DNA of 57,758 nt from an uncultured delta proteobacterium (GTDB taxonomy: Bacteria; Desulfobacterota; Syntrophobacteria; Syntrophobacterales; Syntrophobacteraceae). The notes under the pieces are model-generated. The model saw nothing but the letters and a program-made list of their open reading frames with translations, searched no databases and was not told the DNA's origin. This document shows, piece after piece, positions 1,972 to 37,195 of the stretch. Within the stretch, counting starts at the first letter, position 1. Every line of letters starts with the position of its first letter. The position numbers and the translations under genes were made by a program. Location: NCBI GenBank assembly GCA_963808625.1, contig CAWEHK010000048.1:1-57758 (forward strand), given 5' to 3'.

Positions 1972-2122
1972 CTCAATTTCCAACTCTTTGAGACATTGAA
2001 GTTGTTGTAATTTTTATGGTTGGGACTCCTTGCATGATGTTCAAAAGAATCAAGCCGACAAAAGGCCATTTTTCCTCTCTCCAGAGAAGAGTTAAAAGCT
2101 TGTTTTGCCTTCATCTTTTTCC
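1972..2122 (-). promoter_or_regulatory. CRISPR leader
   Basis: AT-rich non-coding 150 bp between the cas4 stop and the first repeat. Confidence 0.75.
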
Positions 2123-2713
2123 TCAAATCACCTTCTCACAAATATTTCTGTAGCAACAATCGACACACTTTGCGCCGTGCTTTGTGGGCCCAGGGTAAAC
2201 GCCTCTCTGAGCAACGTCCAGGAGATCTCTGACCACATTGTTCAGATCAGAATACATCTTCTCAGCAATATGCACTTCAATCAGTTTATTGCCACTCCGT
2301 GTGTAGATGATGTATCCACGATTTACCGGAAGTCTAAAATTCTCTTTTATCAGAATGCCATAAAATGCCAATTGGAATCTGTGGTTCTGAAAGGTCCTGT
2401 CCTTATATTCTGCATATTTGTAGTCAAGAGGGGCTGCGGTGCCGTCCTTCAGAAAAAGGATTTCATCCACAACGCCGCGAAGACCTGTTTCCGATGCCAG
2501 ATACACGCTTGTCTTGCGCTCGATGCATCCGATCTTCTTTCTCATATAATCCGGATTGACGCGTGCCTTGTCGTCGTGTACCGTCCGGCCTTGCTGTACT
2601 TTGAAGCGTTTTTCTTCGTGTTGAGAAATTCCCAGGTAGAGCTCGAAATACGTAAACCTTGGACAGAAAAGATATTCGAGTAGATTAGATGCTGTAACCG
2701 AGAATTCCTTCAA
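2123..2713 (-). CDS. cas4: CRISPR-associated exonuclease Cas4
   Basis: N-terminal YLFCPR, RecB-like GVVDE..LDYK, QLAFY, C-terminal CxxCCYxxxC Fe-S cysteines. Confidence 0.95.
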   Translation of the reverse strand: MKEFSVTASNLLEYLFCPRFTYFELYLGISQHEEKRFKVQQGRTVHDDKARVNPDYMRKKIGCIERKTSVYLASETGLRGVVDEILFLKDGTAAPLDYKYAEYKDRTFQNHRFQLAFYGILIKENFRLPVNRGYIIYTRSGNKLIEVHIAEKMYSDLNNVVRDLLDVAQRGVYPGPTKHGAKCVDCCYRNICEKVI

Positions 2714-2745
2714 GCACGACCTCCCACCCCTGAAGAATCTGGGGC

Positions 2746-3405
2746 TCAGCCAACATGAACCACTGTACCAAACCCTCTTGCCACTGATTTCCCCAGACCA
2801 AGGTAGTCGGGGATACGGAAATTTATGACAAACTTTCCACGAAACGAAAGCATTCTGTTGTCCTTGAAGTTCGAAGCCATCCCGGACAATCGCAGGTTAG
2901 TGAGGATGTGCGAATCCACATGGTAGCCAAGGGATTTGGACATGGACAGAATGTTTCCGACCAAGATGGACTTCAGGAGCCTTTCTTGGACGTCTTTGGA
3001 GCTTTGAATATATTGGCTGTAGTTCTTTTGATTGAGGGCCATCCAGGGAGTTGCAAAACAGTATTCGAAAAGATCATCTGCCTTGCCAAAAGTCTCCTCC
3101 GTCAACTGGATTTTCAGTTCCGAGTGGACACTTGGCCCGTAGCGACTCAGTTTCATTTCCCCTAGCCCGCCGTAAATTTCCTCCAAAACACCAATACCTT
3201 CCTCGATACCGATAACCATAGGAAATCTATTAATGACTTTATACTGAACTTTTGGATACTGGTACAAAAGACGACCAGCCTCCAGATGGTGGTGCAGGAG
3301 GGTATATTGAGGGAACTTGCCAGCCATGGCGCCCCTAAGTTTTGGTGTATCGCGGGCACAAAGTTCAATATCGCTAAAAATAATCCTCATAATCCTGAGT
3401 TTCAT
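2746..3405 (-). CDS. cas6: CRISPR endoribonuclease Cas6 (Cas6b-like)
   Basis: LLYQYPKVQYK, FATPWMALNQ, C-terminal Gly-rich loop GLGKSVARGFG; probable start MKLRIM. Confidence 0.9.
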   Translation of the reverse strand: MKLRIMRIIFSDIELCARDTPKLRGAMAGKFPQYTLLHHHLEAGRLLYQYPKVQYKVINRFPMVIGIEEGIGVLEEIYGGLGEMKLSRYGPSVHSELKIQLTEETFGKADDLFEYCFATPWMALNQKNYSQYIQSSKDVQERLLKSILVGNILSMSKSLGYHVDSHILTNLRLSGMASNFKDNRMLSFRGKFVINFRIPDYLGLGKSVARGFGTVVHVG

Positions 3406-3436
3406 GCTCCAAGCCTCCGACTCGACAGCAATCCCC

Positions 3437-5915
3437 CTAAAAAACAAAGCTGCCTGGCTCTTTTCTTATGAAACCGGTCAGTTTATCGTAGCACCCTTTG
3501 ACTTGTTCCTTGTTGACGTAAATGATTTCCCAATCGGCTACCGCCCTCCCGGGCGCTTTCTGTGCAGGCACACAAATGACATAGTTGTATAGGTCCTTTT
3601 TGATCCGGTTCAGCTCCCACTTTCTTTCAAAAGGGTCGTCACGGTGACAGGCTTCTCCGTACTGCCTCCATATGCGCTCAGCCTCAATGCCTACTTCGAT
3701 AAACAGGTCACGGGTGGGATATTCCGATTCAATCAGTCGAAATCTCTCGTTGTTGTCCCTGTCTTCACAGGCGGTGCAGAAACTGAGCTCGCTCAAAAGG
3801 TCGAGTATGAGCTCGGACGTGTCATCGGACTTACTGCCTTTAAGCCGCTCGAAATATTCGAGGCCCAAAGCCAGGAACTTCTTCTCGGGCAGCTCAGTTT
3901 TATCGCTCAGTACATCGATAGTCTTGGAAATGGTGAGGTCTGCACGACCATATATGTATTTGTAAAACTCCCGGCTGTTTTTCAACGAAAACAGCGTTAC
4001 CACGCCTTTCTTTCCTGGCTTGAAATTCCTGTTGCAGCGTCCTGCGACCTGGTTTACGGAATCGAGCGGGGCAAAGTCCCGATACACCCTGTCCACGTCA
4101 ATGTCCACCCCGGCTTCGACCAGTTGCGTAGAGACGATTATTTTGCGGCCCCTCAACTTCTTGATTGTCCTGATTCTTGCCAGACGATGTTTCGGGATAA
4201 TATTTGTCGAAAGGTAATAGAGCTTAACGCCCACAAGGTTTTGCTCCTTTACGTATTCCCGAATATCATCAAAGATGTTGATAGAACTGTTAATGGTATT
4301 CATTACGATAAGAAAACTATCCTGTGGATAGGTCAAAATATCTCCGCGTAGGATAGTCTTGAATTCATCAAGGCTCAGCGTTTCCTGGCTTCGGTTGACG
4401 AAAGTTATGCGGTCCAGGGCATCGAAACAGGCAGCTTTGGTTTTGGGGGAGACGAGCTCTTTGATTTCGTCTGCTTGAAAGATGATGGGCTGAGTCGCCG
4501 TCATAAACACGAACCGGGTGTGGAAAAGATGGGCGAACCGCAGGAACAACCTTCGCACCAGGTGCCAGTATTTGTAGGGAATGGTTTGAACCTCGTCGAG
4601 AATGACGATGGCATTAACGATGGCGTTGAATTTCCGAAGCATCCGGTTCTTGTTTGAGATGAGCGTATGGAAAAGCTGCATGAAGGTCGTGACCACAATT
4701 TCCGACTCCCAGCCTTCAATGAGGAGAAGGCTTTCGTCCGGTGGGGCTACTTCATCCTCTTGAAAACGAAAAGCGATTTCAGCCAGATGATGGTGCTTCA
4801 GCAGGATATTGCTCTCCGGTCGCCGTTGCTCGACCACTCGAAAAATGTCCTCAAAGACACTGAAATTCTGGTCGATAATGCTGAGGAAGGGAAGGCAATA
4901 GATGATTCTGGGCGTAAATCCTTCCCTTTGTTGGATTTGGCTTCTGAGCTTGAGGGCAAAGGAGAACGCCGTCAGGGTCTTGCCTGTGCCCGTTGGCACA
5001 TTGATGGAGTAGACTCGGTCTTGAAGATTGACGCTGCCAACAGCGCTGGTCACTTCATCGTAGATAAGATTGCGCAGGGGGTCGATCTGATTCACATGCC
5101 TGTCGGTCTTGAATTTTGCCAGACGATAACGGTCAACCAGATCGTCGGAGAGGAATGGTCTTTGATCGCCTGCCTGGTTGATCGACCTCATCCCGATTGC
5201 ATCCCTCTTATCCGCGCTCAGCAAGGCTGAATATAGAAACTGGAACAACAGATAGAGATCAATCCTGGTGTTTTTCCGATAAGTCCGAAACCTCGCCTTT
5301 TCTGCTCGCAGCATCTTTGTTCGGACCAGATCTTCAGCCTCCCGCCGGAACGATGCAAGATCAAATTCCACTTCCGGCCTGGCGGTCAGGATGGAATCGA
5401 ATGCGCCGGGCTCAATGCTGTCAAGCTGTCGCTTCACCACGGCAAGGGATTCGGCTCGCTGAGCGACAAGATCTCATCCCTGAGATTTCCGAGGTTACCA
5501 TGATGCCTCTTGACCGCCAGAAAAGCCAGTACGGGTAGGTATCCATACGCGGGATGGTCCAGAGAATACTTCGGGAAATGCCGTCTGCCACGATCCGGTA
5601 GGTGAAGAGCGAGGAGAGCAGGCTATGGTGGGTCTCATCCTTGTTTTTGAGCACCTTCTTCTTCTTTTCGTCCTTCTCACGAAGATAGCCTTGAAAGTAC
5701 CCGGTAGCCTTACCCAGATCATGGGCAAAACCCATCAGGAAAGCGGCATCTCCAAGGATCTCGCCATCGGTTTCGCCATCAATGGATACTCTTTTGTCTC
5801 TGATCTCGGAGCACATCACGGCGGTGTTATTCAAATGCTCGATCAGCAATTGCCCAGGACGCGCCAGAAGTCCTGTCGGTTCTTCGTCAGATGGATTCAT
5901 TGCCTTATAATTCAC
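3437..5915 (-). CDS. cas3: Cas3 HD nuclease-helicase (frameshifted near 5.45-5.6 kb)
   Basis: AHDLGK and HHSLLS in the 5' ORF; SADKRDA, PTGTGKT, LDEVQ, MTAT, STQLVEAGVDID and QVAGRCNR in the 3' ORF. Confidence 0.95.
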
Positions 5916-5935
5916 TCTGCACTTGTGGTGCTCAT

Positions 5936-6636
5936 TTACAGAAAGAGGACCTTGTCTCCGTTTGTCACCTCGAAGTAGTGTTCCGTTTGCGCCAGTATGG
6001 GCTTGCCGTTCCTTTCATAGACCACGGTCCCGAACTGCGTGACAATTCTCTTGCTATCCATCTCGAGCGGAATGTTGGCAGAAAAATACTCCTTCTCCTC
6101 TTCAAAGGTGACCAGAGTCCCTTCCTCAGGTATCACGCTGTTCAGAGCAACAGGTGACATCATCGAATGCCCGCTCTATTTCGAACTCTCCCACAAAGCT
6201 GAAATTGGCCAGCAGTTCACTCAATCCCAGAGAAACCGTGTACACCGATTCATGTTCTCCAGGGATCTCGCAGGCGGCTGAAGATCTCCGCTTTCTTGTG
6301 CTGGAAGTAAATCCTGTACCTGGGGTCTTTGACGTATTCCTGCCGGATCTGGGTCCTCTGCTTGATCTTGGAGAAGAGCTTCGCGCGTTTGGTGTCGATC
6401 AGGTTGTGGCTTATGCGAATCTTCTTGACAGGATTTAGCAGCCTTAATCCTATGGCAGCATCTTTCCTGAGGAAGAAGCGAGGGTACTCATTCTTCCCGA
6501 GTCCGACAATGGCGGAAATAATGCCTGCAATGGTAGGGCGCGGAGGAAAAGCGAAACTGAGTGGAGAGGTCGTGGTATAGGGCTTTTTGAAGTGCCCAAG
6601 ATCTCCCCATAGGTCAAAAACCAGAACGCTTTTCAT
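5936..6636 (-). CDS. cas5: Cas5, type I-B (frameshifted)
   Basis: VFDLWGDLGHFKKPYTTTSPLSFAFPPRPTIAGIISAIVG N-terminal signature; continues through a YTVSLGLSELLANF-type segment into ORF 5936-6163. Confidence 0.92.
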
Positions 6637-6647
6637 GTCTTTCTCCA

Positions 6648-7573
6648 TCAAGAGAACGTGATTTCGCTAGCCACAATGCCTTTGAGAAGATCGGCGATAG
6701 TTGCTTCTTTTTCATCGGCGACGAGGGTGAGGCGTGAGTCGATCCGATAGTCGACGGAGGCTATCCTGGCAGAATGCCCTTGAAGTGATGCTTTCAAAGC
6801 GCTGACATCCAGCCGTAATTCGCTGAGTCCCGCAGTTTCACCACGGGCAGATCAGTTTTGATAGTCACCATCCGGTCAAGGTCGCCAATGAAAAACCCGG
6901 GGGAATTGTAGTTGATCTTCAACAGAAGTCGGCAACTGGCCGAACTTGGATCGCGAGATAAGGTTCCGTGTCCCTTCCCACATTCCTTCAACAAGTAACT
7001 CGATATCATCCTGGGTAGCATTGGTGTCCACAGCCGCCGCCGGATTCACAATTCCGTGAAACGCAATAAGCGGTAGTAGAGAATATCCTCTTCGCGAAAG
7101 GTGGATTGCTTTGCTCCCTCCTTTGAAGCAAACGCTCCGGTCCCTTTGATATGCTTCATTACAACCGGATGCAGAGAGCGGCCCATCTTGAACTGCACCG
7201 GACCTGTCAGGGTAATGGAATCCTTGGGCAGCGGTATTGTTCCACCGAAAAGCCTCACGTCGATGCACGATTTCAATATCTCCTCACGATGGCCGTTAAA
7301 ATCCATTGCACGTGTCTTGCCGTCCTGTATTTTTCCCTCTTCGTCGGCGATCTCTCTTACGAAGATGTCATTGCCATTTTTTCCATTGTAACCTTTATAC
7401 GTGTATAGGTAATCTCTGATCGTCCGCTTCAAGCGTACATCCGTGACGATGTTATATCCAGTCTCCTCGTCAATACGAGGTTTATTTTCGTCCAGAGGGT
7501 CTCCATTAGGATTGGCATCCTTCACATCGTAGAGAAAAAGCAGTTCCGCTTTATTCGTCAGGCTGCTCATCAC
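6648..7573 (-). CDS. cas7: Cas7, type I-B Csh2-like (frameshifted)
   Basis: ANPNGDPLDENKPRID, TDVRLKRTIRDY, DVRLFG, TGPVQF; later frames give WEGTRNLISRSK. Confidence 0.95.
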
Positions 7574-9446
7574 CTTCCTCCTTCTTTGCGTTGAATAGGC
7601 CGGCCATGTTCATTCCCATGGTGAAATAAAAACTAATTTCGTCATTGGTACTCACCCATTTCGGTCCAGCAGCGATCATATATTGGGCTATGAGAGCCTC
7701 ATGTTTGCGGTAGAACTTATTCTTATCGTACTCTTCCAGTTTGTTTTGAGCCTCGTATGACAGCCTTTTCACGAGTGCTTCATTGAGCCGAAGTCCCTGC
7801 AATTTCGTACGGAAGGGCGTAGCATTTTTGTCCTTCCACTGTATGTTGAGCAACTTCTGCACCAGTACTCCCACAAGGAAGCACGCCTTCTTTTCAGCAA
7901 GGTCAAAGAATCCACGGTGCGCTTCAAAAAAAAGGTTAATTTTAGCAGGGACATCAGTCTCTCCCGTCCCGAAAGCATCCTTCAGTTCCTCGATGGGTTG
8001 AATATCCATACGTTCACCTCCTTTGCTCAAAATACGCAAGTCTGCTAGATAATTCAAAAGCATATAGCCGGAAAGACAATCGCGCTTTATATATTCATCC
8101 TTCACAAAGCTTGATCGTAGCTTTCTCATGATTGCCTGGATCAGAAAGTGATAATCGATACTCTTCAGGGAAAAGATCTTTCCCACGAGATCGAGGAAAT
8201 GTTCATCGAAAGATCTGGTCTTGCTCACATAGGGAAAAAAGTCCCTGAGCACTTTGAAATTAAACACAAGCAATCTCTTGCCATCTTTGTGAGAGACTTC
8301 TCGTTTGAAGATATCAATTTCATCAAGCCTCGCTTTGGCCTTGAAGAGCAGCCTGAAGCGAGAAGGCAGGACATCTTCCACATGCAGCAGAATGTTGAAG
8401 GCAGCCTGCTTCTCTCTGTAGAAGAGGAGATCGAAGCTCACATAGTCTTGCTTTTGGCTGAGCAACTCAAAAACCTCAGCCTCGGCATCCGTGAGGCGAT
8501 TGATATACTCCTGTTGGAAGCTGGCCTGTATGAATCTTTCTGCCCTATCCGCAAGTTCGCCCTCAAGGACATCGAGGACTTCTTCCATCGTCTGATCGCT
8601 GAAGAACTTTGGAATAAGAAGGTATTTAAAGCCATAGAAGCTGAAGTTGAGGTTGTCGTTGAGGTGTCGTTTGCCGAGTTCAAGGTTGCATGCGCAGTGC
8701 AGGCAGACAGGATAATTCTTCCAGGCATGCTGCTGCTTGAACCCACCGGTTACGAACCCCGGTTTGTCCACAGTGTAAAAGTTGTATGTGTTGACAAATC
8801 CATAGACTTCCGGCTGTTCGGTCAAGCATACCGAGCAGTGCTTGTTGTGGCCCAGGGATTTGGCGCCATACTGCTGATAGTATTTTGATTTGGACTTGTT
8901 GATGAGGACCTTCTGAAAAAGTTGCAGATCTCCGATATAAAACTTATCAGCACCCTCTAAGAGAGCGATCGTGACTATGGCGCCTTCCCCTTTTTCAAGC
9001 TCATTTGCCTTCTGGACCAGCCGCTGCTCAATGGCTTCGGTACTGGCAGAGAGAGCGTCGTTTATGGCCTTGGCGGTTCGCAACTCCTCCTCATTGAGTC
9101 CCAACTCCTTGCTTTCTTCCAAAATATCGCGAACGCTTCGCAAGATCTTGTTGTTAAAGGTTTTGCTGATGTCACCGGCAAACTTGGATGTCGGAGTGAT
9201 ATCAGACCCCTGTGAAGCACCTCGACGGTACAGATACTTAAGTAGATATGCCTTGGTGAACTCATCGACATCCACATCCTTGAAGACATAGCCCGCTTCC
9301 TGCTGTTCAAGGAGGATCACAAAGACCTTCCGGATGCCCCCTTTTTCATTGGGATTCTGGACGAAGTTACTCAACGATCCGGCAGTGCCATCCTTTGAGC
9401 CTGCCCACTTTCCGATTTTCATGATGGCAGTGATCATGTGCACCAT
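7551..9446 (-). CDS. cas8b: Cas8b large subunit (TM1802/Csh1-like)
   Basis: 631 aa; CSVC..YTVDKPGF..NYPVCLHC zinc motifs; C-terminal EISFYFTMGM; directly upstream of cas7. Confidence 0.92.
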   Translation of the reverse strand: MVHMITAIMKIGKWAGSKDGTAGSLSNFVQNPNEKGGIRKVFVILLEQQEAGYVFKDVDVDEFTKAYLLKYLYRRGASQGSDITPTSKFAGDISKTFNNKILRSVRDILEESKELGLNEEELRTAKAINDALSASTEAIEQRLVQKANELEKGEGAIVTIALLEGADKFYIGDLQLFQKVLINKSKSKYYQQYGAKSLGHNKHCSVCLTEQPEVYGFVNTYNFYTVDKPGFVTGGFKQQHAWKNYPVCLHCACNLELGKRHLNDNLNFSFYGFKYLLIPKFFSDQTMEEVLDVLEGELADRAERFIQASFQQEYINRLTDAEAEVFELLSQKQDYVSFDLLFYREKQAAFNILLHVEDVLPSRFRLLFKAKARLDEIDIFKREVSHKDGKRLLVFNFKVLRDFFPYVSKTRSFDEHFLDLVGKIFSLKSIDYHFLIQAIMRKLRSSFVKDEYIKRDCLSGYMLLNYLADLRILSKGGERMDIQPIEELKDAFGTGETDVPAKINLFFEAHRGFFDLAEKKACFLVGVLVQKLLNIQWKDKNATPFRTKLQGLRLNEALVKRLSYEAQNKLEEYDKNKFYRKHEALIAQYMIAAGPKWVSTNDEISFYFTMGMNMAGLFNAKKEEGDEQPDE

Positions 9447-9464
9447 CCTCCCAAAACAAAAGGG

Positions 9465-11195
9465 TCACTTCATCTCATGCAAGACGTCACTCGTTTTTCG
9501 CATATTAAGAATGGAGAGTAATTGGTCCAGTTCGCGAAAGGTTAGGCACCAGACTCCAGACTCAAGAGCCTCCCTGCAAAAACCCGACGGGGCTACACAC
9601 ATCAGTCTGTGAATGGGGATCTTTGCTTTCTGCTGGAAGAAACCTTTCTTCCTCAGCAATATGTCGATCTCCTTTTTAGTTACCGTCTTGCTTCGATGTT
9701 TGAACTCGCAAATCCAGTTCTCCTCGCCGATGCAAAGGGCGTCTATCTCAATATTTGAGGGCTTACCAAAAACCACTCCCAGCTCATCGAAATCGTTGCT
9801 GGAGTCAACCGCGTCGAACTTTGGCAGGAGCAACTCTCCATAGCGCTGCCCACTGAACTTCCGCAACATTTCCCGCAGATAGTACTCAAAGTATATTCCC
9901 AGTTCCGTCTTGAGGCTTGCGATGTACTCCTGGTAGTTCTGGGTGATCTTTCTGCTGATTGCATCCAGCCTTGGTTCATTCTGACCATGCACCGCGTTTA
10001 ACCAGATCTGCAGTGCCGGGTCGGATATAAGATAGCGTTTGTCCTTTCGCTCAATCAGGTCCAGGTTGTACAGAACGGAAAGAGGAGTGGTCAAGTAGCC
10101 AGTGCTCCTTTTCATCTTTCGAGCCAAATCGGTCAGAGACAAATCGCCTGAGGAGAGCTCTCGCAGTACCTCTTTCAGCAGGGCAACCTTCCTTACCCTG
10201 CCCAAAGATGTCTCGAAAAGGTAGCGGCAGTGGGAGTAAAGCCTGCCCCTGGTAATTTCAAAAACAAACGCCTCTTCGACATGTTGCTTGCTGATGATAG
10301 CAGTCCCGCCGGAGAGTCTTTCCGCTGAAGCAATAATGGCAACCAGATAAAACGGGTGGCCATGAGAAAGATTATAGATCAAGTTTAAAGCCTCGCCCGC
10401 AATAGTCTTACTGGTGCATCGGTGCACGAGATCGCAGGCATCATCTTTGTGGAAAGGTGTAACGTTCAGCCGCTCAACTCTTCCATAAAATGGCGAATCG
10501 TCACTTTCCAGAATATCGATCATCATTCGCACCGCGGAACCTGTAAACAGATACCATACGCTTTTCTGACCGGAGATAATGTTCTGCAGGAACCCTAACA
10601 GCTTGCTTCCACCGATTCCCCTGTTGGCCCTCGGGCGCATTGAGACGTTGCTCTCCAGGCCCTTGTAACTTCCCAGGTCCATAATGGCCTGGAACTCATC
10701 AAAAACCACTGCAGCTGTCACTCCGGCTTCGGTCGAAAAGGCGTCGATAAATCGCAGGACCCGGTCCAGAACAGGCCGCTCCTCTTCTGGCGACGGAGGA
10801 AAGTATGAGAGCAGGAATCTGGAAAGATCAGTCAGCACCTTGCTGCCTATTTCATCTGCAACACGAACTAAAATGGAAGGGTTGACCTCAAGGTCATCCA
10901 ACTCGGGAACCTCCATGTGTCGGATTTGTTGCGTGTACGCCCTGAGAAAGGCAAGAAGTAGGCGTACGGCAAACTTTCCGGGCGTGCCCATATTCCCTTG
11001 AACATCAAAAATGATTTTGACAGTACTGTCGCTGTTCAGTGTCCGCAGGAATTCCTCGGCAATAGAGCTCTTGCCGATTCGCCTGGGACCAACGAGGACC
11101 GCATTTTGATGCGGATAGACAGCACGAAGATGCTCCAGAAGAGTTCGTCTGTTGATAAAATCTGGGCCCGTCGCTGGATGTGAAATCGATATCAT
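9465..11195 (-). CDS. Archaeal-ATPase-family (STAND-like) ATPase with winged-HTH and C-terminal PD-(D/E)XK nuclease-like domain
   Basis: Walker A GPRRIGKS, Walker B VVFDEFQ, FTGS, PFYGR, GHPFYL; wHTH SLTDLARKM..YLISDP; C-terminal FEYYLRE..EIDAL..ICEFK; GAGGT RBS; intact 576 aa. Confidence 0.85.
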   Translation of the reverse strand: MISISHPATGPDFINRRTLLEHLRAVYPHQNAVLVGPRRIGKSSIAEEFLRTLNSDSTVKIIFDVQGNMGTPGKFAVRLLLAFLRAYTQQIRHMEVPELDDLEVNPSILVRVADEIGSKVLTDLSRFLLSYFPPSPEEERPVLDRVLRFIDAFSTEAGVTAAVVFDEFQAIMDLGSYKGLESNVSMRPRANRGIGGSKLLGFLQNIISGQKSVWYLFTGSAVRMMIDILESDDSPFYGRVERLNVTPFHKDDACDLVHRCTSKTIAGEALNLIYNLSHGHPFYLVAIIASAERLSGGTAIISKQHVEEAFVFEITRGRLYSHCRYLFETSLGRVRKVALLKEVLRELSSGDLSLTDLARKMKRSTGYLTTPLSVLYNLDLIERKDKRYLISDPALQIWLNAVHGQNEPRLDAISRKITQNYQEYIASLKTELGIYFEYYLREMLRKFSGQRYGELLLPKFDAVDSSNDFDELGVVFGKPSNIEIDALCIGEENWICEFKHRSKTVTKKEIDILLRKKGFFQQKAKIPIHRLMCVAPSGFCREALESGVWCLTFRELDQLLSILNMRKTSDVLHEMK

Positions 11196-11213
11196 TTGAC
11201 CTCACTTACCTGG

Positions 11214-11255
11214 GAATCCCTACGCATCCGTAGGCCTACGGATGCGTAGGGATTC
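11214..11255. repeat. Perfect 42-bp palindrome
   Basis: gaatccctacgcatccgtaggcctacggatgcgtagggattc equals its own reverse complement. Confidence 0.95.
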
Positions 11256-11276
11256 TTGTATAAACCAACGAAGCAA

Positions 11277-11305
11277 AGTATGAATGAGGCGAAGCGAGAT
11301 GTCAA
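11277..11305 (-). promoter_or_regulatory. Putative sigma70 promoter of the ATPase-Cascade operon
   Basis: Minus strand TTGACA-17 bp-CATACT, about 80 bp upstream of the ATPase start. Confidence 0.6.
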
Positions 11306-11457
11306 GCGTCAAGTACTTGGGCACCTACCTGATCAATGATGGGACTCTTATCATTTTGGGCGTCCCATAGAGCAGCGCCGCCTGCCCCCGATGTATTGAC
11401 CCAGAAGCTCCCCATTATATACCATAGGCTCTAACCAGCTGATTCTCACTTGGTTCA

Positions 11458-11754
11458 TCAAAAAAACTTCGCCAGGAGCTCTTCGTTTACCAGCTTCTTA
11501 TCGAATCCCTGGCCGAGGACCTTCACCTTTTTGAAATCCTCCTGGCAGAAGGGAAAGAGATAAACACTGTCGACCTTTTCATCGATCAGGCTGCGGCATT
11601 TTTCGGACAGTTCATCAAAGCGGTTGGATTCGAGCTTGCCAAGGAAAGCGCTCTTCTGGACCCGCTCAAGGCCGTATTGTTTGCAGGCCCTGGCTACCCT
11701 GCTGCGCACCTTGTCTTCCACAATATCGTAAATGATCCAGACCAGCACCGCCAC
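11458..11754 (-). CDS. cas2: Cas2
   Basis: IIYDI, ERVQKSAF, DSVYLFPFC; 98 aa; follows cas1. Confidence 0.95.
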   Translation of the reverse strand: MAVLVWIIYDIVEDKVRSRVARACKQYGLERVQKSAFLGKLESNRFDELSEKCRSLIDEKVDSVYLFPFCQEDFKKVKVLGQGFDKKLVNEELLAKFF

Positions 11755-11768
11755 CGGCGTCCTCCGCT

Positions 11769-12782
11769 TCAGAATTCCTTTATTTCAAGCCAATCGGGTC
11801 TCTTTTCACCGCACTCTGCCAGGAGGATATTTGCCAGGCGATGGCATTCATGCTGGATGATGTGACGCCGTTTGACATTTTTTCTGCGGTAGCGGACACT
11901 CTCGTCCAGATGCTTGTTCATGGCGTCCACCACGACCGGCTTCCCCTTCTGGTTGAGCGAAACGGATTCTTCCCGCGAATCGAAATAGTCATCTTTGATT
12001 TGCTTTCCCGTGAAAAGATAAACCGTGGTTTGTTCCCCATAAATGCGGAAGGGCTCGATCAGATCAAAGACCAGCGATTTCTTGTTGTAGTTATCGGTGT
12101 GGAGAAAACCCACGTAAGGATCGAGTCCCGAGAGGATGCAGGCTTTTTCAACCAGCGAGTAGAGAATCCCGTAGCAATAGTTGAGACAGGCATTGAAGGC
12201 ATCTTTTGCCGGTCTTCGCGACCGTTCCTTGAAGCGGTATTTCTCGGGCAGCACTCCGGACAGACACCGGAAGTAGGCCCTCCCCGCCGTGCCCTCCAAG
12301 CCCATGATGCGGTTCCGGATGGCTTCCAGATCAGAGCCCTCGGCAGCGAGGCTGGCTCTTGCATCCTCAATGACCTGGGTAAATGGCCCGAAGGATTCCT
12401 CCTTGTTGGGGCGGGCATACATCAGCTTCTTCAGAAAATTGATTTGGTTCGTGAGCTTCTGGGTGACGATCTCACCGACAAGCTGCAATCCGAGCGGGCC
12501 CTCTGCGGCCTCCAATTGTTTTCGCCGGACCAGGGCGGTGCTTCCCATTTTGGAAAACCAGACGCGACCAACCGGGTCTCCGTATTTGTCGAGAAAAACA
12601 ACGTCGATTTTATGCTCGAGCGCCAACACCAGGGCCTGGGTCGAGATCATGGCCTGATTCGAGATGATGATGCTTTCCACCTTCAGCGGAGAGATATCGA
12701 GAGTTCTCTCTTGCTGCTTCAAACGGAAGCATTCATCTTTCTGGGTAAGAAAGGTTCCCGGCGTGTTTACGACAAGCTGCAT
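11769..12782 (-). CDS. cas1: Cas1
   Basis: MGLEGTAGRAYF, RSRRPAKDAFNACLNYCYGIL, GLDPYVGFLH, SLVFDLIEPFR. Confidence 0.97.
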   Translation of the reverse strand: MQLVVNTPGTFLTQKDECFRLKQQERTLDISPLKVESIIISNQAMISTQALVLALEHKIDVVFLDKYGDPVGRVWFSKMGSTALVRRKQLEAAEGPLGLQLVGEIVTQKLTNQINFLKKLMYARPNKEESFGPFTQVIEDARASLAAEGSDLEAIRNRIMGLEGTAGRAYFRCLSGVLPEKYRFKERSRRPAKDAFNACLNYCYGILYSLVEKACILSGLDPYVGFLHTDNYNKKSLVFDLIEPFRIYGEQTTVYLFTGKQIKDDYFDSREESVSLNQKGKPVVVDAMNKHLDESVRYRRKNVKRRHIIQHECHRLANILLAECGEKRPDWLEIKEF

Positions 12783-13012
12783 CAGCGAACCTCTTTTCTC
12801 AAAAGTCAAAACCCGGATTAGCCGTTATGGCGCGAAGGTTAATTATCTCCATGGAACTCGTACTCCAACGTTAATCGACGTAACGGATGGGACGGATGGA
12901 GATAGTATGATAGTCTTTTACAAAATCCTTTGGCCGTTTGTCCATCGCGAAATTTTGTGTGAGAATGCAGAAATCAGCAATTTCTCAAGTCCGATAGCAA
13001 GCCCCCGGTCTC

Positions 13013-14510
13013 CTAAACCTCCAACGCCTTCCAGGCCCTTTCAATATTTTCCTCGATGGCCGGGTCTTCATGGGATAGATCGAGGGCCTCGATGACCAGC
13101 TCTTTCAGGGGATAGATGGCCGTCAGGGTGCGCTGCTGCAGTTCTGGGTCGAGGAGGCCGAGGGAGGCGAGGAAGTCCAGCCAGGCCGGGAGCAGTTCGA
13201 AGGTGACGGCGGTCTTGAGATCGTGCGACTCGAACTGGCTGAGCAGCCCTTCCAGATAAATCTCGAAGGTGGCGGCATCGGGGCAGAGGGGATGTTCAAA
13301 ACGGGGTCGCGGCTTTTTCTTCGATTTCTTTTTCGGGCGTTGCCGGGCCGCCTCGAGTGGCTCCTGCCCGGACTCCAACGCGCCATCATAGCGCAACGAC
13401 AAATAAAAAAACCATTGGATGCGGGCGAGGTGGCCCTTGGTCCAGGGTACATTGTGCGCCGTGCGCAGGTAACTCAGAAATTCGGTGCAGAGATGAAACA
13501 GCTGAAGTCTGAATGACTCCTCCCCCTGGGGTCCCCTCTTCCGGGCGCCATCGTGAGTGAAATCTTCGAGGGATCGGCGACTCCGGATCTTCCCGGAAAG
13601 GACCTGGAGATAAACCTCCAGATACTCGTGGGGGCACTTCGGAAAAATACCGCAGAGCCTCGACCAGGGTCGGGTCGTGCGCGTCCGGTTCCGGAGCGCG
13701 CTCCAGGTAGTCGAAGATCACGCAGTTGACGGCGAGGTCCTTGAGTTCGTCGATGGTATCAGCATCAATGATCCGGGATTCCTTGAGCGTCGGCCAGGCA
13801 GCACGAAGCGTCTTGAGCATCGCCGGGAGTTCGGCGTAGTAGGCCAATCTGTCAAGCATACCGGATAATACCTCGATGCGTTCTTCCGCGCGTTCTGCCA
13901 AGGCGATAGCCATCGCGGCAGCCGCTTCGGAATTTCCGGAAATCAACGCATTGGCGATGCTCCAGTCGAGATAAAATATGGCGCTCTCCTCATAGAGTTC
14001 GGGGCGGCGCGCCTGCAATGCGGCTGCGAGGGCATCGAAGCGATGCCGCTCATGGCGCTCGGCGCTGTCTTCATAGATCGTGCTGAGAGCCTCGAAAGTC
14101 AGCTCGTCATCCAGCACCCCGGGATCATCGAGCGCTTCGAGAAACAGTTCAAACCGGTCCTCATAATCGGCCTCTTCAAAATCCCTCCACCATGCACTCT
14201 CGGCAAGTTTGCCTTCGTCATAATCAGCGATATCATCACCTTCCCCACCCTCGCCAAAGTATTCATCGTCAGAGAAATCTTCCTCAAAGAAGTCTTCCTC
14301 AGAGAAGTCCTCTTCATCCACCGCCTCAAGGACGAATGGGAAATCCTCTGCCGGAGATGGGGCGGAAGGGGATTTTTCGTCGCGACTCGCCTCGGCCCGC
14401 TGTTGAGACAATCGTTCGCGTCTTTCCTCTTCGGCCTTTGCCAGGCAGCATTGTTTATATTTCTTGCCGCTGCCGCAGGGACACGGATCATTCCGACCAA
14501 CGCTTGTCAT
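13013..14510 (-). CDS. SEC-C motif-containing protein (frameshifted)
   Basis: N-terminal VGRNDPCPCGSGKKYKQCC, acidic linker, helical body continuing into ORF 13013-13402. Confidence 0.75.
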
Positions 14511-14679: not shown

Positions 14680-17600
14680 TTAATTCTCCCTGATCAGCTT
14701 CAGCAGTTCTTCCGTGGACATTCTGCCGACCATATCGCTGCCGTCGAGGAGGCTGCTGGCCAGGTCCCGTTTTTCCTGGTGCAGTTTGACGATCTTTTCC
14801 TCGATGGTATTCCGCGCCACCAGGCGGTACACCGTGACCGGCCGATGCTGGCCGATGCGATGGGCGCGATCGGACGCCTGGTCTTCGACGGCGGGATTCC
14901 ACCAAGGGTCCATGTGGAGCACATAATCGGCGGCGGTCAGGTTCAGCCCCAGGCCGCCGGCCTTGAGGCTGATCAAGAAGAGGTCGCCCCAACCCGCCTG
15001 GAAGGCATCCACCTCGCGTTTCCGCTCGCGGGGCGGCGTGCTGCCATCGAGGTAGCGGTAGTCAAGGCCCTTGAGATCGAGGTATTCCCGAAGCAGTTTC
15101 AGATGCCCCACAAACTGGCTGAAGACCAGCGCTTTGTGATGGTTCTCGAGGAGCTCCGACACCACTTCACCGAAGAGCTCAAGCTTGGCACTGGGGAGGC
15201 TCGTCTTCGGCAGGACCAGGCGAGGATGGCAACAGGCCTGGCGCAGCTTCATGATCTCGGCAAGAATTTTCAGGTGCTTCTGGCCTACCGGGCTGTCATC
15301 GTGTTCCAGCCGCTCCAGTGCCTGCCGCCGCAAGGCTTCGTAGAACGCCGCTTCTTCGGGGCCCATTTCCACCTGGAGAACCACTTCCGTGCGCGGCGGC
15401 AGCTCCTCGAGGACCTGCGGCCTTGGTGCGCCTCAGGATGAATGGCTGGACCAGCTTCTTCAGGCGCTTCCTGGCTTCCCGATTGTTGTTGCGTTCGATC
15501 GGGACGGCATAACGCGTATTGAACCGTTCCTGGGAACCCAGCAGTCCGGGATTGATGAAATTGAAAAGGGTCCACAGCTCGCCGAGATGATTTTCGATAG
15601 GGGTGCCCGTGGTGATCAGCCGCATGTGGCCCTTGAGGTTCATGGCCGCCTGCGAGCGCTTGGCGGCGAAGTTCTTGATCGCCTGGGCTTCATCGAGGAC
15701 GATGGTGTGCCACTCGACGGAAGCCAGCAGGTCGGCTTCCTGGTAGAGGAGGCCGTAGCTGACGACCAGCACATCCATCTCTCCCAGCTTCGTCGACCAT
15801 CTGCTCCCGGTTGCCGCCCCCAAAAATATCCAGGTTCAGGGTCGGAGCAAACCGGTTCGCTTCCGCCACCCAGTTCATGCAGACGGAGGTGGGCGCCACC
15901 ACCAGGGTCGGCGCTCCCGGAGCGCGCTCCAGAATCAGCGCCAGCGCCTGCAGGGTCTTCCCCAGCCCCATATCGTCGGCGAGACACCCGCCGAGCCCCA
16001 GGTGGGCCAATCTGGCCAGCCACTGGTAACCCTCGACCTGGTAGTCACGGAGCTCGGCCTTGAGGGTTGAGGGGACGGCGGGCGTCAGTTGCAGCGCCGA
16101 GCGCATGTTCGGCGAGCCGCGCCAGCCAGCCCTGATCGGCATCCAGGCGGGGGAGCTGCGCGGTGAAATCCTCGATGGCCATGGCGGCAAGCGGGTGGAC
16201 ACGCAGTTCTTTGCCATGTCCTGTTCCGAGTAGTCGGCGAGCTCTTCCAGGCGTTTGCGCAGTTCGCGGGTGAGCGCCACGAACTGGCCCTCCCCGAGAG
16301 GCAGGAACCGGGTGCTCTCGCTCTCGATGAGCTCGAGCAGGCGCTTCATGTCGAGGACGAGATGGTCGTCCACCTGGAGCTCACCGCCGATTTCAAACCA
16401 GTCCGTCTTGCTGCGGATGCGCAAACGCAAACGATCGAACGAGACCTCTCTGGTGACTTTGAGCTTTTCCCCTTCCGGCCAGGCGAGAACGACCTCACCG
16501 CGCTCCTGCAAGGTCTTCAGCTCGAGCAACACCTGGAGGCAGCCCTGGAGATCGTCCACGCGCCATTGGCGCTCGTTTTCTTCGGCGGCGGCAAGCGTGG
16601 TGCAGGCGGCTTCCGCCGCTTCCGCCATGATTTTCTTCGCGGTTCAGATCGCGCCTGGTATGCATCAGCTTGCCATCAATTTCCGCAATCACATTTTCCA
16701 TCCCCGATCCCGGTTTGAGGTAGGGGCCATTCGTCCCAAAAGGCTGTACGAACATCTCGAAGCGGAAGCCGGACCCGGAAGGGACGATGTGCACCCGCGG
16801 CATGGCATCGGCGGTGACTTCCTGAATATCCCGGGAAATGCCACCGATAGCGGAATGCACGGTAACCTGAGAGGAGATGCCGGCCACCGCGTCCATGACT
16901 TCCCCGGCAGCGGAAGCCGGGACCTGCAAGCCCTTTGTCACCCAGGATCTTGGCAATGCGCAGGTGGTGATCGGAGAGCTCTACAACCTTGAAGCGCGTG
17001 GGCGTTTCCTGCACCAGGACCACTCGGTGAATCCTGGGCCTCCATGGAGAACTGGATGAGGATCCGGTGTCGGCGCGGGTAACCAAGACTTCCGGTTCAC
17101 CCTTGATTACCTCCACGGAGACCCCTGGCGACTTCTCGAGAAAGAGCAGGGGATGCCCGACCAGGGCCGGCAGCAGCCTGCTGGCTATTGAACCGGTACC
17201 GGGTGTCGTAGTAATAGCGTGCCTCGCGCTCGATGGCCGCGCATATGGCATGATCCTGCGGGGTGAGACAAGCCGGTTTTCGGCCTCCGAATAATCGGCT
17301 GAGCGCCACCGGCCGTCCTTTCGTCCATGTGCCCCGAACGCTCCGTTTCTGTTCCAGGGGCTGCACGGAGACAGTGCCGTGACGATAGTCCAGCAGCCAG
17401 ATCAACCTGGCATCAGTCGGCTGCAGCGGCGCCCCCTCGCGCCCCCGCTGCGATTTCGGTCAGAGCGCGCAGGCACTTTCGCCACGGTTCTTCGACCCGG
17501 ATTGCGGCCACGAAGGATGCCATGCCCGTTTCCTGGCGGATCTTTTCAATGGCGTGACGGCGCACCGGCGTTGGTCTCCTCCGCCCGGCAGAGCAGTTCC

Positions 17601-18990
17601 GCACATTCCATGGCCAGCCAGTTCAGCCCCACTTCCCGGGACTTGATGAAGAGCTCGCTCAGGGAGTCAATGTCCTCCTGCGCGAGCTGACCGTCACGCC
17701 AGTATAAGGCGAGGATGCGGAAAAACGCACTCAAACCGCTCTCCGCCCGGTCCTTGTCGCTCAGCGATGGCAGTGCTCCCGTCGCTTCGCCGTCCAGGGC
17801 CTGGACAATCGTTTTCATCGCCCGATACGATTTCGCCAGCAAGGTGTCTTCCCGGTGCCTGGCAATGGCTGCATCAAGCAAAGAGCCTATTTTCTTTGAC
17901 TCATGCATTGACCCGGGCTTCAACAGGGCGAGCATAAAAAACAAGCCTTCGAGACCCCCAAAGTAGGCAGTGCGCCTCCCATCGTTGCGGCGCAGTTTCT
18001 TCAGGTCGGCTTCAAAGGATGCAATGGCAGCGTCATTGTGGTCTCTCAGAAACCAAATCCACCCCTCCAACCCATAAAGCAGCATCGTTTCCCGGATCTC
18101 GGCCAGGAGTCCCTCGGCTTCCGTCAGATGCCCGCCGATCAGAAGTCTCGAAATAAGATGGTGGTAGAAGGCGGGGTCGTTCGCGAGGGGAATGGCTTCC
18201 CGGATTTGGGGGCTGGACGCATAAGCCAGGGCCTCGTCATCGGCATCGAGAAAGAACAGGGTATGATAGAAGATTGCGGTCAGGACATTCGCCTGCAACC
18301 CCGCCGGCAGAGCGCCAAACCAGTTGGCGTCGAAGGGATTGTTGCAGACTCGGACCAGGGGCTCCAACTGCCCGTATCTTGGGGCACAGTGGGTGTAGAG
18401 CTGCTGATACGATTTGTTGAGGAGTTTGGTATTCTGGGTGTAAAGACCGATACGCAGATCCCGCATGGCGCGCTGACAATACTTCGTCGCCGTCCCGGTG
18501 GTGTGATACGGGATCGGGGGTATTTCCTCCTGCACGGCCCGGGCCATGAGCTCAAAGCAGTTGCGCGCGGCGGGCAAGATCGCTGACCCCGGGCGTGCGG
18601 TTGGCCGCTTGGGGGAGCCCGTTTTGCCGGTTTTGGGGTCCCTTCGGGAGTCATCGGTTCGAGCTCATCCTGCGGAGCAATGACCGTATCCAGGGCGTGC
18701 CTGCTGCAGATCTCGATAATCGCTTCGTGGCATTGGAGGTGCCGGTTCAAGAGCTTGCGAGCCTGGAGCCGGTTGATGCAGGATTCGAGGTCGGCTGCCG
18801 TGGCCGGGCTGCCTTCGGGAAAGGTCAGGCCGGTGCGCCGGAAGCACTTCAGGAGGGTGGCTTCATCCGTCGGTTCACAGATCACCGAACAGAGCTGCAT
18901 GACCGCTTGATCTACGGGGGACAGGCGCTGGAAGACGGCAACCAGCTTTTCCCGGATTTGGCTTCTCTGGTCCACTGGGTTCCTCTTCAT
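14680..18990 (-). CDS. Large SNF2/SWI2-family helicase (multiple frameshifts)
   Basis: LRDYQ, LADDMGLGKT, VLDEAQAIKN, TGTPIENHL, LVFSQF, SLKAGGLGLNLT, DPWWNPAVEDQASDRAHRIGQ, with a long N-terminal region spread over several frames. Confidence 0.9.
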
Positions 18991-19067
18991 GCCAAGGATA
19001 GTCTGGAAATCAGGTTAATCGAAATAACGTTACCCGCCGCCGGGAAAAGATGCAACCTTTGAAAAGC

Positions 19068-19377
19068 AGTGGCTAGTGACTAGTGGCCACTGGCTAGCGA
19101 TTAGTGATTAGTGGCTTGTGGTTAATGGGTGGTGGATGGTGGCTGATGGCAACGCGTTGGCTTTCAGCAGTGTTCCATGAGAACTTACGGCGGCGTTCAT
19201 TACGGGCCGGACCAAATGATGTTTTGACAACCGGTATGGATGCGATAAAATCTCTGGCGGGTTTGAGTTACGTGGAGGCGTTGCCGGGCAGACCATCGGT
19301 CGCTGGTTACCAGCCACCAGCCGCTAATCACTGGCCACCAGCCACTGATCACTAGCCACTACTCACTAGTCACTAGC
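19068..19377. repeat. Inverted heptamer-repeat tracts flanking a unique core
   Basis: (TAGTGGC/TAGTGAT)n at left and (CTAGCCA/CCAGCCA)n at right; 14-bp terminal IR gctagtgactagtg (19072-19085) / cactagtcactagc (19364-19377). Confidence 0.75.
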
Positions 19378-20734: not shown

Positions 20735-20928
20735 CTCGCAATGAAAAAAAGTGGTGAGTGAACTGGTTGATGGTTGATGGTTGATAGTTGATGATTGATA
20801 GTTGATGGTTGACGGTCAACTCGCAATGAAGAAAAGTGGTCAGTGAAGTGGTTGATAGTTGATTTGAGTTGATAGTTGATGGTTGATGGTTGACGGTCAA
20901 CTCGCAATGAAAAAAAGTGATCAGTGAA
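20735..20928. repeat. Tandem ~81-85-bp units containing GTTGAT(G/A) heptamers
   Basis: ctcgcaatgaa(a/g)aaaagtg.t(c/g)agtgaa at 20735, 20820 and 20901, separated by heptamer runs. Confidence 0.85.
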
Positions 20929-30938: not shown

Positions 30939-31760
30939 ATGCAGCCTTTGGCGATAGAGGTGAAAGACGTTTGGTTTTCCTATGACGGCCAGCCCGTCCT
31001 GCGGGCCGTGAATCTTTGCATCGAGCAGGGGGAGTTTCTGGCGATTCTTGGTCCCAATGGGAGCGGCAAGACCACGCTGCTGAAACTCATGCTGGGGATT
31101 GTTAAACCCAGCAAGGGGACCGTCCGGGTCCTCGGGCAGGAACCTTCAAGCGTTGCCGACCGGATTGGGTATGTGCCGCAGGATACCAATGTCAACAAGG
31201 ATTTTCCCATATCGGTGATGGATGTGGCCCTGATGGGAAGGCTCGGGCATGCCGGGCGTTCCCGCCGTTACTCCGCAGACGATCAAAGACTGGCAAAAGA
31301 GGCCCTGGAAAAGGTTAACATGTGGGAATACCGGAAGCGTCCCATCGGCAAACTCTCGGGCGGGCAGCGCCAGCGGGTGTTTATCGCCAGGGCCCTGGCG
31401 GCCGATCCCCAAATCCTCTTCATGGATGAGCCAACTGCCAGTGTTGACAAGGAATTTCAATCGGAACTCTATGATTTCCTGAAAGAACTCAATACCTCCG
31501 CAACCGTGGTGGTCGTCAGCCACGATCTCAGTGTGTTGTCCAGCTACGTCAAGTCGGTCGCCTGCTTGAATCAAACCCTCTATTTTCATGACTCGGCGGA
31601 GATCACGCAAGAGATGATCGATATGGCCTATCACTGCCCCGTGGACCTCATTGCCCATGGCCTCCCCCATCGGGTACTGCGCAAGCACGAGGAGCGATTG
31701 AGATATTCGGATGTTGGATGTCGGATGTCGGATTTCGGGTGGCGGATTCTGGAAGCCTGA
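30939..31760 (+). CDS. znuC: Zn/Mn ABC transporter ATP-binding subunit
   Basis: GPNGSGKT, YVPQ, LSGGQRQR, MDEP, VSHD, His-containing tail; the 3' end runs into a repeat tract. Confidence 0.88.
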   Translation: MQPLAIEVKDVWFSYDGQPVLRAVNLCIEQGEFLAILGPNGSGKTTLLKLMLGIVKPSKGTVRVLGQEPSSVADRIGYVPQDTNVNKDFPISVMDVALMGRLGHAGRSRRYSADDQRLAKEALEKVNMWEYRKRPIGKLSGGQRQRVFIARALAADPQILFMDEPTASVDKEFQSELYDFLKELNTSATVVVVSHDLSVLSSYVKSVACLNQTLYFHDSAEITQEMIDMAYHCPVDLIAHGLPHRVLRKHEERLRYSDVGCRMSDFGWRILEA

Positions 31761-31960
31761 TATGGGATATCGGATTACGGGACCGTGTTATCAATTCGTG
31801 TGTCTTTGTTAATCTTCGTGTGACTTCGTGGACAGCTTTCGGGAGATGTCGGATTTCGGATTGTGGATGTCGGATATGGGATACCGGATTCGGGGTCAGG
31901 TTGCTGGATATTAAACTGCATTCGTGTGTCTTCGTTTTTTCTTCGTGTGACTTCGTGGAC
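31703..31960. repeat. CGGATGT/CGGATTT heptamer tracts with TTCGTGTGACTTCGTGGAC motifs
   Basis: Two similar units between znuC and znuB; inverse copies at 35221-35240 and 35903-36020. Confidence 0.8.
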
Positions 31961-35571: not shown

Positions 35572-35902
35572 ATTCATCATCCGACCGGCAACCGGTCGCA
35601 GGCACAAATCCACCTCGGGTAAACCCCTTAGCCTGATGCATATGAGGCTCGACCCCGCCCGAATGACCAACTCTGAATTTTGGACGATTGCCAAGTCACA
35701 CGAAGACCAGGACCTAATCTGAGCGATTTCGCCGCCAACTCTGCGTCATACCGGCGCAAGCCGGTATCCAGTAAGAAAAGCCAGAGACCGGATACCGGCT
35801 TGCGCCGGTATGTCGGGAGCAGGCTCTCAAAAAGGAATCGCTCAGTTTAGGTAAGCCTAACGAAGACACTCGAAAGGAGTCCACGGTCGCACTATCCAAC
35901 TT

Positions 35903-36020
35903 CCCCCATCCAAAATCCGACATCCAAAATCCGCAATCCGCAATCCGACATCCAAAATCCGACGTCCAAAATCCGACGTCCAAAATCCGAAATCCGACAT
36001 CCGAAATCCGACATCCGAAA
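35903..36020. repeat. AAATCCG/ACATCCG heptamer tract
   Basis: Run of about 16 degenerate heptamers downstream of panB. Confidence 0.85.
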
Positions 36021-36034
36021 TCTAGCGCTTCTTC

Positions 36035-36924: not shown

Positions 36925-37195
36925 GGTTCCCAAGCTCTGGCTTGGGAACCTACCTGCTTGGAAGCTCCAGCTTCGTCGGACCTGTGGATACCAATTGTAC
37001 CCAAGGGACATCGGAAGCTGAGTCGCCGCGTTCCGAAGCTGGACTTGGACGAGAAGCTGGAGCTTGGGAACGAGCGAAACTAGCGAACGAGCAAAAACCC
37101 TTACCATAACTACTGACCACTGACACTCGCCACTGACTACTGACCACTGACTACTGACTACTGACCACTGATCGCTGCCACTGATCACTAGCCAC
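36925..37195. repeat. GTTCCCAAGCTCxxGCTTGGGAAC REP-like cluster followed by a CTGAC(C/T)A heptamer tract
   Basis: Palindrome at 36925-36950, related units to 37074, heptamers at 37110-37195. Confidence 0.75.

Follow-up and report, generated by a model that had tools for sequence, protein, structure and literature searches.

Analysis of a 57,758-nucleotide contig from an uncultured delta proteobacterium (the whole stretch is referred to here as the window) reveals that the effector block of its type I-B CRISPR locus begins with a gene for a 576-residue protein (P0001), in which an archaeal-type ATPase is fused to a winged helix and a predicted nuclease, and that this gene is preceded by a tandem palindrome with the appearance of an operator. 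The reading we favor, to which we assign a probability of roughly 0.55, is that this ATPase-wHTH-nuclease represses its own synthesis and that, as a standing accessory gene of one type I CRISPR lineage, it switches both itself and the Cascade genes.

The minus strand of the locus reads cas1, cas2, a 262-bp gap, the ATPase-nuclease gene, cas8b, cas7, cas5, cas3, cas6b, cas4 and the CRISPR array (Table 1). The frame of the ATPase-nuclease gene is open on this strand and interrupted by many stops on the other, in agreement with the preliminary description of an intact gene of 576 codons. That description regarded it as the first gene of the Cascade operon, which holds for the effector block, although cas1-cas2 precede it in the same orientation and the gene is thus internal to the cas locus. 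The reported distance of 18 bp to cas8b is correct if the latter starts at its first ATG (9446), whereas the start matched by homologs (9437) gives 27 bp. No terminator-like site was found on the minus strand between the two genes; given this and the distance of 18-27 bp, a transcript shared with the Cascade genes is to be expected. A tblastn search of the genome to which the window belongs found no paralogs of the gene.

Table 1. Features of the CRISPR locus and of the ATPase-wHTH-nuclease gene (coordinates refer to the window)
Feature	Coordinates	Strand	Basis
CRISPR array, 37-nt repeat, ~20 copies, runs off contig end	1..1971	-	
cas4	2123..2713	-	
cas6b	2746..3447	-	
cas3, HD + helicase, frameshifted in assembly	3437..5915	-	
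cas5, frameshifted in assembly	5939..6651	-	
cas7, frameshifted in assembly	6654..7573	-	
cas8b, TM1802/Csh1 type; likely start 9437	7551..9446	-	homologs/profiles
ATPase-wHTH-nuclease gene, P0001, 576 aa	9465..11195	-	ORF; Pfam ATPase_2; model and fold matches
Mrr-like PD-(D/E)xK nuclease fold, residues 432-573	9477..9902	-	1y88 match
Winged helix, ~residues 337-401; recognition helix ~365-377	9993..10187	-	model secondary structure
GxP motif (GHP), residues 279-281	10353..10361	-	G279, P281 in 59/59 homologs
Walker B, residues 162-167 (VVFDE = 163-167)	10695..10712	-	D166, E167 in 59/59 homologs
Walker A GPRRIGKS, residues 36-43	11067..11090	-	G36, R38, R39, G41, K42 in 59/59 homologs
Shine-Dalgarno-like GAGGT of ATPase-nuclease gene	11199..11203	-	read from sequence
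Candidate operator, 34 bp, two overlapping 18-bp palindromes, period 16	11218..11251		shuffle test and genome scan
Sigma70-like promoter TTGACA-17-CATACT	11277..11305	-	10/12 matches
cas2	11458..11754	-	
cas1	11769..12809	-	

In the window cas7, cas5 and cas3 are frameshifted with respect to intact homologs, while full-length frames of all three are present in the homolog loci L002, L003, L082 and L177. A nearby SNF2 helicase gene (14680-18990) is also split by frameshifts, and the CRISPR array is interrupted by a 539-nt poly-G run (1363-1901), probably an assembly artefact, with a near-duplicate repeat-plus-flank on either side. The split SNF2 gene and the poly-G run together suggest assembly errors, and the frameshifts in cas7/cas5/cas3 (3437-7573) and in the SNF2 gene are probably sequencing indels; given these suspected errors, the window copy is unable to show the system to be active. 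The position of cas6b varies: it follows cas3 in the window and precedes the ATPase gene in L002, L003, L081, L082 and L177. Elsewhere in the window there are intergenic arrays of 7-bp-unit repeats (19060-19377, 20766-20928, 31689-31890, 35880-36026 and 37109-37204), some of which form inverted pairs kilobases apart.

The domain anatomy proposed in the preliminary description (Walker A and B, GxP motif, winged helix and a nuclease-like tail with EID and EFK motifs) is borne out by motif conservation in 59 homologs and by fold comparison. An AlphaFold model of P0001 computed from these homologs (mean pLDDT 89.2) matches two structures far ahead of the others over residues 1-401, namely 2qen (Z 28.6) and 2fna (Z 27.7), with the next row at 19.6; the same two are the top Foldseek matches, and the ATPase, helical domain and winged helix superpose on them over ~330 residues, which supports the suggested membership in the archaeal-ATPase/STAND-like class. 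At the sequence level, the Pfam ATPase_2 profile detects P0001 with an E-value of 8.4e-8 (32.7 bits against a cut-off of 33.2) and matches 58 of the 59 homologs at E<=0.1 (best 1.6e-15); the winged helix gives weak matches to MarR and HTH_5 (22/59 homologs each), and PDDEXK_10 is matched in 30/59 at E<=0.1. A long helix (residues 410-445) precedes the nuclease fold, for which residues 432-573 match 1y88 (Z 12.2, rmsd 2.4, 116 residues aligned), a hit that stood at rank 48 since the ATPase part fills the list. In PMC3424549, 1y88 is listed with Mrr_cat, and COG1672/DUF234 is given as a PD-(D/E)xK-fused form. The C-terminal domain predicted alone reached a pLDDT of 35.9, its profile matched no PDB sequence, and a homodimer prediction for residues 1-450 scored 0.00, which is uninformative either way.

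The catalytic set of the predicted nuclease (E437, D485, E497 and K499) follows the E...D...ExK pattern. Within the tail motifs EID (483-485) and EFK (497-499), residues E483, D485 and E497 are invariant in the 59 aligned homologs, and position 499 is Lys in 47, Arg in 10 and Thr in 2; Arg occurs in loci L004-L006 of the I-D branch and Thr in two proteins of the I-B branch. The dN/dS values of the ATPase, wHTH and nuclease parts range from 0.07 to 0.31 in five of six pairs (the remaining pair and one further value are saturated), i.e. all three domains are under purifying selection where it could be computed. We conclude that P0001 is composed of an archaeal-ATPase domain (COG1672-type, STAND-like), a winged helix and an Mrr-like nuclease fold. 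The nuclease of the I-B branch looks intact and may be a second effector; as some I-D-branch proteins have Arg in place of the Lys, regulation may be the more constant role.

A protein search returned 67 proteins, i.e. the query, 65 sequences at 42-79% identity and one at 25%, with the named close homologs coming from Syntrophobacteraceae, Desulfobacterales and other Deltaproteobacteria, i.e. bacteria of the sulfate-reducing type. The gene is rare, as only 3 of 401 genomes of the phylum were matched at 1e-30, one of them distantly. Its link to cas genes is strong: among the matches listed, 18 of 19 distinct loci with a close homolog (at least 39% identity; L005 and L088 encode the same protein and are counted once) are type I cas operons, five of the 19 being of type I-D, although the number of independent cases is below 18, as L002, L003 and L177 are 91-93% identical. 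The close homologs are thus cas-linked, in accord with the earlier view of a dedicated, non-canonical cas-linked gene, and recurrence upstream of cas8b was found in 11 of the 19 close loci among the matches listed. The gene lies directly before cas8b in at least 11 loci (the window, L001, L002, L003, L081, L082, L086, L089, L090, L167 and L177), between cas3d and cas10d in at least three (L004-L006) and after cas5d in at least two (L083 and L085). Further arrangements among the matches listed are a position before a gene of no known kind and cas6b (L084), a disrupted copy followed by cas6b and another type of cas8b (L171) and a fragment next to an IS21 element (L087), the sole case among the close loci that does not belong to a cas operon. 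Matches to the Cas proteins of the window occur in only 3 of 145 distant loci (L007-L080, L091-L161) among the matches listed; in one of these three, L091, the homolog is located between cas3 and cas1.

Searches with the large subunits reveal the same linkage from the other side. Among the 401 genomes, the three with Cas8b at 55-56% identity are the three with the intact gene, whereas eight with Cas8b at 35-38% gave no match to the ATPase-nuclease; a reciprocal Cas8b search of 122 genomes added two with the gene and one without. In sum, the gene is present in 5/5 genomes with Cas8b at 55% identity or more and in 0/9 with Cas8b at 35-38%, and in a sample of 151 genomes it accompanies close Cas10d in 2/2 cases and is missing from one genome with Cas10d at 33%. 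In these matched genome samples the ATPase-nuclease goes with one lineage of Cas8b and one lineage of Cas10d. In a FastTree phylogeny of 103 rows, the cas-linked rows form one clade (71 rows, support 90, rising to 98 when the long-branched L091 and P0070 are included), and a 55-row subclade takes in the I-B rows but not the I-D rows, a topology that would fit one ancient acquisition kept through exchange of effector modules. The identity of the ATPase-nuclease tracks that of Cas8b (rho 0.90) and Cas1 (rho 0.89). Among mobile elements, plasmids yielded no match, phages one partial match at 22% and viral contigs one partial match at 24%.

The cas10d-like genes of L004, L005, L006 and L083 (~890 aa) match Cas10d profiles only at E-values of 1e-5 to 5e-9, and these loci represent a divergent lineage of type I-D. 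Cas1 of this lineage shares 50-66% identity with Cas1 of the I-B loci, and the repeat end of L005 resembles that of the window, two likenesses that suggest exchange of the effector module. The cas loci contain some additional genes, namely L084:2385-3077 (230 aa) and L003:8357-9223 (288 aa), whose products had no Pfam match and no convincing PADLOC match, and a BrxC-like fragment between cas4 and the CRISPR array (L177:3415-4581).

The preliminary description mentioned a promoter upstream of the gene and overlooked the tandem palindrome next to it. A sigma70-like site is indeed present, but three such sites were found in the region against 2.6 expected, and the one at 11305-11277 does not by itself rise above chance; most homolog loci likewise have a TTGAC(A)-like hexamer upstream of the gene. 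The candidate operator is part of a perfect 42-bp palindrome (11214-11255) that is flanked by the promoter-like site on one side and the ribosome-binding site on the other, and of 4,804,147 windows scanned in the 4.8-Mb genome it is the only one scoring at least 32/36. A single palindrome unit found elsewhere in the genome (C33:25242, inside an open frame) was taken as a chance occurrence. A REP-like dispersed repeat was considered and rejected, as the palindrome arm is unique in the genome at 0-1 mismatches.

Upstream regions of the homologs exhibit the same design in altered letters, i.e. two 18-bp palindromes with a 2-bp overlap, which end 12-36 nt ahead of the start codon. The half-sites are CCTA (window, L167), GCATAT (L001-L003, L177, L084) and ATATAT (L081), and in the I-D-type loci ATAAAT (L004, L006) and ATATAC (L083, L085). 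Among the matches listed, the tandem palindrome is significant (p <=0.02 against dinucleotide shuffles, with a peak at period 16 that in L003 is tied with 19) in 12 of the 14 close loci for which upstream DNA was available, with scores of 27-36/36; the same shuffle test found no significant operator in L005 and L082. Ten related cas loci without the ATPase-nuclease gene contain no window scoring 28 or more; the element thus accompanies the gene rather than the operon. It extends far beyond the cas-linked clade: among the matches listed, 61 of 129 distant family loci carry a tandem palindrome at p <=0.05, mostly with period 15, compared with 6 of 120 control regions upstream of other genes (the 129 were drawn from 144 distant loci, leaving out six with no motif, four with no start, four duplicates and one that was too short). 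Most distant family members are ATPase-wHTH proteins of ~370 aa that lack the nuclease. Bacterial and archaeal ATPase-wHTH proteins of ~370-400 aa (L010-L080, L096-L161) have palindromes of period 15-16 just upstream of their genes, and the tandem palindromes of this family may represent a previously undescribed, family-wide autoregulation. Period-16 tandem palindromes with other half-sites (TATGTC/GACATA), scoring 30/36, are present at G000:C49:47697-47730, ~130 bp upstream of a 355-aa gene, and at L081:6976-7009; these may serve a different regulator.

Judged by eye, the tandem palindrome of L004-L006 overlaps the -10 region, and those of L002, L003, L081 and L177 begin 12-13 nt past it, a placement with the geometry expected of a repressor site. 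In the window, the tandem palindrome is located ~19-52 nt beyond the predicted start site and is predicted to form a strong RNA hairpin (z -7.05), and a role at the RNA level is therefore possible there.

Covariation between protein and DNA bears on whether the winged helix recognizes the palindrome. In 40 relatives with period 15, the sequence window containing the recognition helix ranks first of 363 in predicting the operator sequence (partial r 0.30, Mantel p 0.0005, with overall protein identity removed), and the top nine windows all fall within the HTH; relatedness among the rows is not accounted for in the Mantel p, which makes the ranking of the windows the better control. In 18 rows with period 16, which include the cas-linked clade, the test for covariation of helix and operator was negative (r -0.07, p 0.76), and with the period classes pooled the recognition helix attained only rank 11 of 389, a result after which the split by period was chosen. 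On these sequence correlations, binding of the operator by the family's own proteins appears well supported; for the cas-linked clade, we infer it from the rest of the family by homology.

The tandem operator argues for a role of the winged helix in transcription regulation, and negative autoregulation through this domain is the simplest reading. According to this scenario, a type I CRISPR lineage took in an ATPase-nuclease gene together with its own promoter and tandem operator, and the winged helix would bind the operator and repress the transcript starting there. With cas8b-cas7-cas5-cas3 (or cas10d-cas7d-cas5d in the I-D loci) downstream in the same orientation, at distances of 0-60 bp, the switch would govern the Cascade genes too, and the protein would act as a regulator of the interference block in at least 14 loci where its gene precedes the large subunit. 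A signal read by the ATPase domain would free the operator and thereby raise the levels of Cascade and of the ATPase-nuclease itself; in the most speculative step, the predicted nuclease would then act as a second effector. STAND proteins are known to switch by nucleotide state. IniR (PMC5760070) is an example of a STAND-like regulator of transcription that contains an SSO1545-like domain, and Csa3b, which is reported to bind two palindromes and to repress the I-A interference cassette (PMC5389559), provides a precedent for the logic. Some observations sit less comfortably with regulation of Cascade: the operator is family-wide, so that it is older than the cas link and may have been retained for reasons other than control of cas genes, the position after cas5d in L083 and L085 implies no control of effector genes there, and the parallel identity of the ATPase-nuclease with Cas8b and Cas1 fits plain co-inheritance. 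A more far-reaching version, which we put forward only tentatively, is that a STAND-like ATPase heads I-B/I-D effector operons as a repressor-nuclease gated by infection, where one protein would keep Cascade low, let go upon a signal and cut nucleic acid as a back-up, and that the large, functionally unassigned archaeal-ATPase/wHTH family broadly consists of sequence-specific, self-regulating DNA-binding proteins.

Plain co-inheritance would also be expected if the gene were a self-regulated, stand-alone defence or addiction gene similar to PDC-S27 or PDC-S01, inserted once, in effect controlling nothing but itself and independent of CRISPR, an explanation we find rather improbable. A single insertion could explain all cas-linked rows, as they form one clade, and the adaptation modules of the I-B and I-D loci are related (Cas1 50-75% identical), yet the gene persists at four or more positions, next to large subunits of three kinds and down to 39% identity. 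Other inserts do occur in the same loci, e.g. PIN and PDC-S05/ORF6N-like genes, but these vary from locus to locus, whereas the ATPase-nuclease is found in all five genomes of the close Cas8b lineage, and the sole close copy outside a cas operon among the matches listed is the truncated one by the IS21 element. The distant relatives outside cas loci bear the same type of operator, some of them near methyltransferase or pPIWI-nuclease genes, and PADLOC gives weak matches to PDC-S27 and PDC-S01, all of which would suit an independent gene; a promoter-operator that heads effector genes can, however, hardly spare those genes.

The preliminary description favored an abortive-infection or anti-anti-CRISPR back-up coupled to Cascade, in which the nuclease, restrained by an intact Cascade or Cas3 or kept low through crRNA-like repression, would kill the cell or arrest its growth once an anti-CRISPR has put the system out of action. 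This proposal did not fare well and we consider it unlikely, despite the embedding of the gene in a cas operon, a nuclease motif that is intact in the window and in 47/59 homologs, purifying selection on the nuclease domain, and the existence of embedded back-up systems such as CRISIS (10.1101/2024.12.27.630466) and PrrC (10.1101/2024.01.29.577857). The neighboring large subunits (Cas8b and Cas10d) are unrelated, which makes a single physical partner less likely, and the catalytic Lys is replaced in L004-L006 and in two I-B-branch proteins. The best crRNA-like repeat unit in the 262-bp cas2-ATPase gap scores 25 against a null mean of 25, i.e. not above chance, no match to the repeat unit stands out in positions 1991-13400 of the window (very degenerate units might escape such a search), and the spacers have three 8-nt matches to the promoter gap, which is the chance level; between the gene and cas8b, where CRISIS has its repeat unit, there are just 18-27 bp. 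Least probable of all, in our opinion, is a catalytic helper, i.e. an ATP-dependent nuclease supplying prespacers or aiding target degradation: it would agree with the correlation with Cas1 and with the position of the gene just upstream of cas6/cas1 or cas1 in L083 and L091, but the loci own Cas3 and Cas4, related loci with Cas1 ~70% identical do without the ATPase-nuclease gene, and the operator would be left unexplained.

Among known proteins, the archaeal ATPases of the COG1672/ATPase_2 family, represented by 2qen (PAB2304) and 2fna (SSO1545), are alike in the ATPase, helical domain and winged helix at ~20% identity to P0001, which differs from them by the Mrr-like tail after the long helix and by its dedicated place in cas operons. 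Avs proteins have an N-terminal effector and a C-terminal TPR sensor. The Avs-type likeness invoked earlier is limited to the STAND-type ATPase core (PDB 8dgc, Foldseek E 1.8e-7): the Avs3 chain has 2004 residues against 576 in P0001, in which the nuclease is C-terminal and, according to the model and Pfam, there is no repeat domain and hence no TPR sensor. PDC-S27 and PDC-S01 are single-gene fusions of an ATPase and PD-(D/E)xK nuclease, from a collection of which most members await validation (PMC12988326); their PADLOC profiles match P0001 partially (E 2.6e-5 to 4e-3, 14-21 bits), over less than half of each profile, and the portion of that source consulted here mentions no cas link or operator for them. 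The CasR profile touches only the wHTH of P0001 (E 0.041, residues 341-390). Csa3b has a CARF-type sensor, whereas P0001 differs from Csa3/CasR in possessing a P-loop ATPase N-terminus and no CARF sensor, in its fused nuclease and in its association with I-B/I-D systems. The likeness lies in the paired palindromes at the promoter of interference genes, to which binding is predicted for P0001, while Csa3b is described as a 23-kDa regulator of type I-A that needs Cascade (PMC5389559).

A monophyletic clade of STAND NTPases tied to type I-E cas genes has been reported by Shmakov (10.1101/270033), who describes TPR repeats and loci without Cas1, Cas2 and Cas3, in contrast to the wHTH and nuclease, the complete I-B/I-D loci and the lack of TPR seen here. 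CRISIS/CreTA likewise embeds non-cas defence genes with their own promoter in a type I operon, which according to 10.1101/2024.12.27.630466 are repressed by an RNA resembling crRNA that a solitary repeat gives rise to, whereas no repeat unit above chance was detected upstream of the P0001 gene in the window and the control element resembles a protein operator. An entry "Mrr nuclease + ATPase" in Table S3 of PMC10910872, compared by its description only, refers to a gene of ~1 kb, which is too short for the ATPase-wHTH-nuclease fusion. In the literature searched, which comprises few subscription papers and includes PMC12669027 and PMC8730458 in partial text, an ATPase-wHTH-nuclease in I-B/I-D operons is undescribed, as are, within the same coverage, tandem operators for the archaeal-ATPase/wHTH family; the Shmakov 2018 profile set could hold the ATPase-wHTH-nuclease family.

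We conclude that the ATPase-nuclease gene is real, rare and dedicated to cas loci as an accessory, and that it is assembled from known parts. Its association with I-B and I-D systems and its operator are new, and with the operator its likely role shifts from a killer to a regulator with a nuclease attached. Control and induction of type I interference genes are known for few systems, and the protein is a candidate for a new class of cas-operon regulator with a named putative binding site. It also illustrates how a stand-alone defence gene might come to be incorporated into a CRISPR locus. For the widespread STAND-like ATPase family, which includes abundant defence candidates, operator-specific self-regulation would be the first concrete function offered, and if this is true, the operators of the archaeal-ATPase/wHTH family would be readable straight from genomes.
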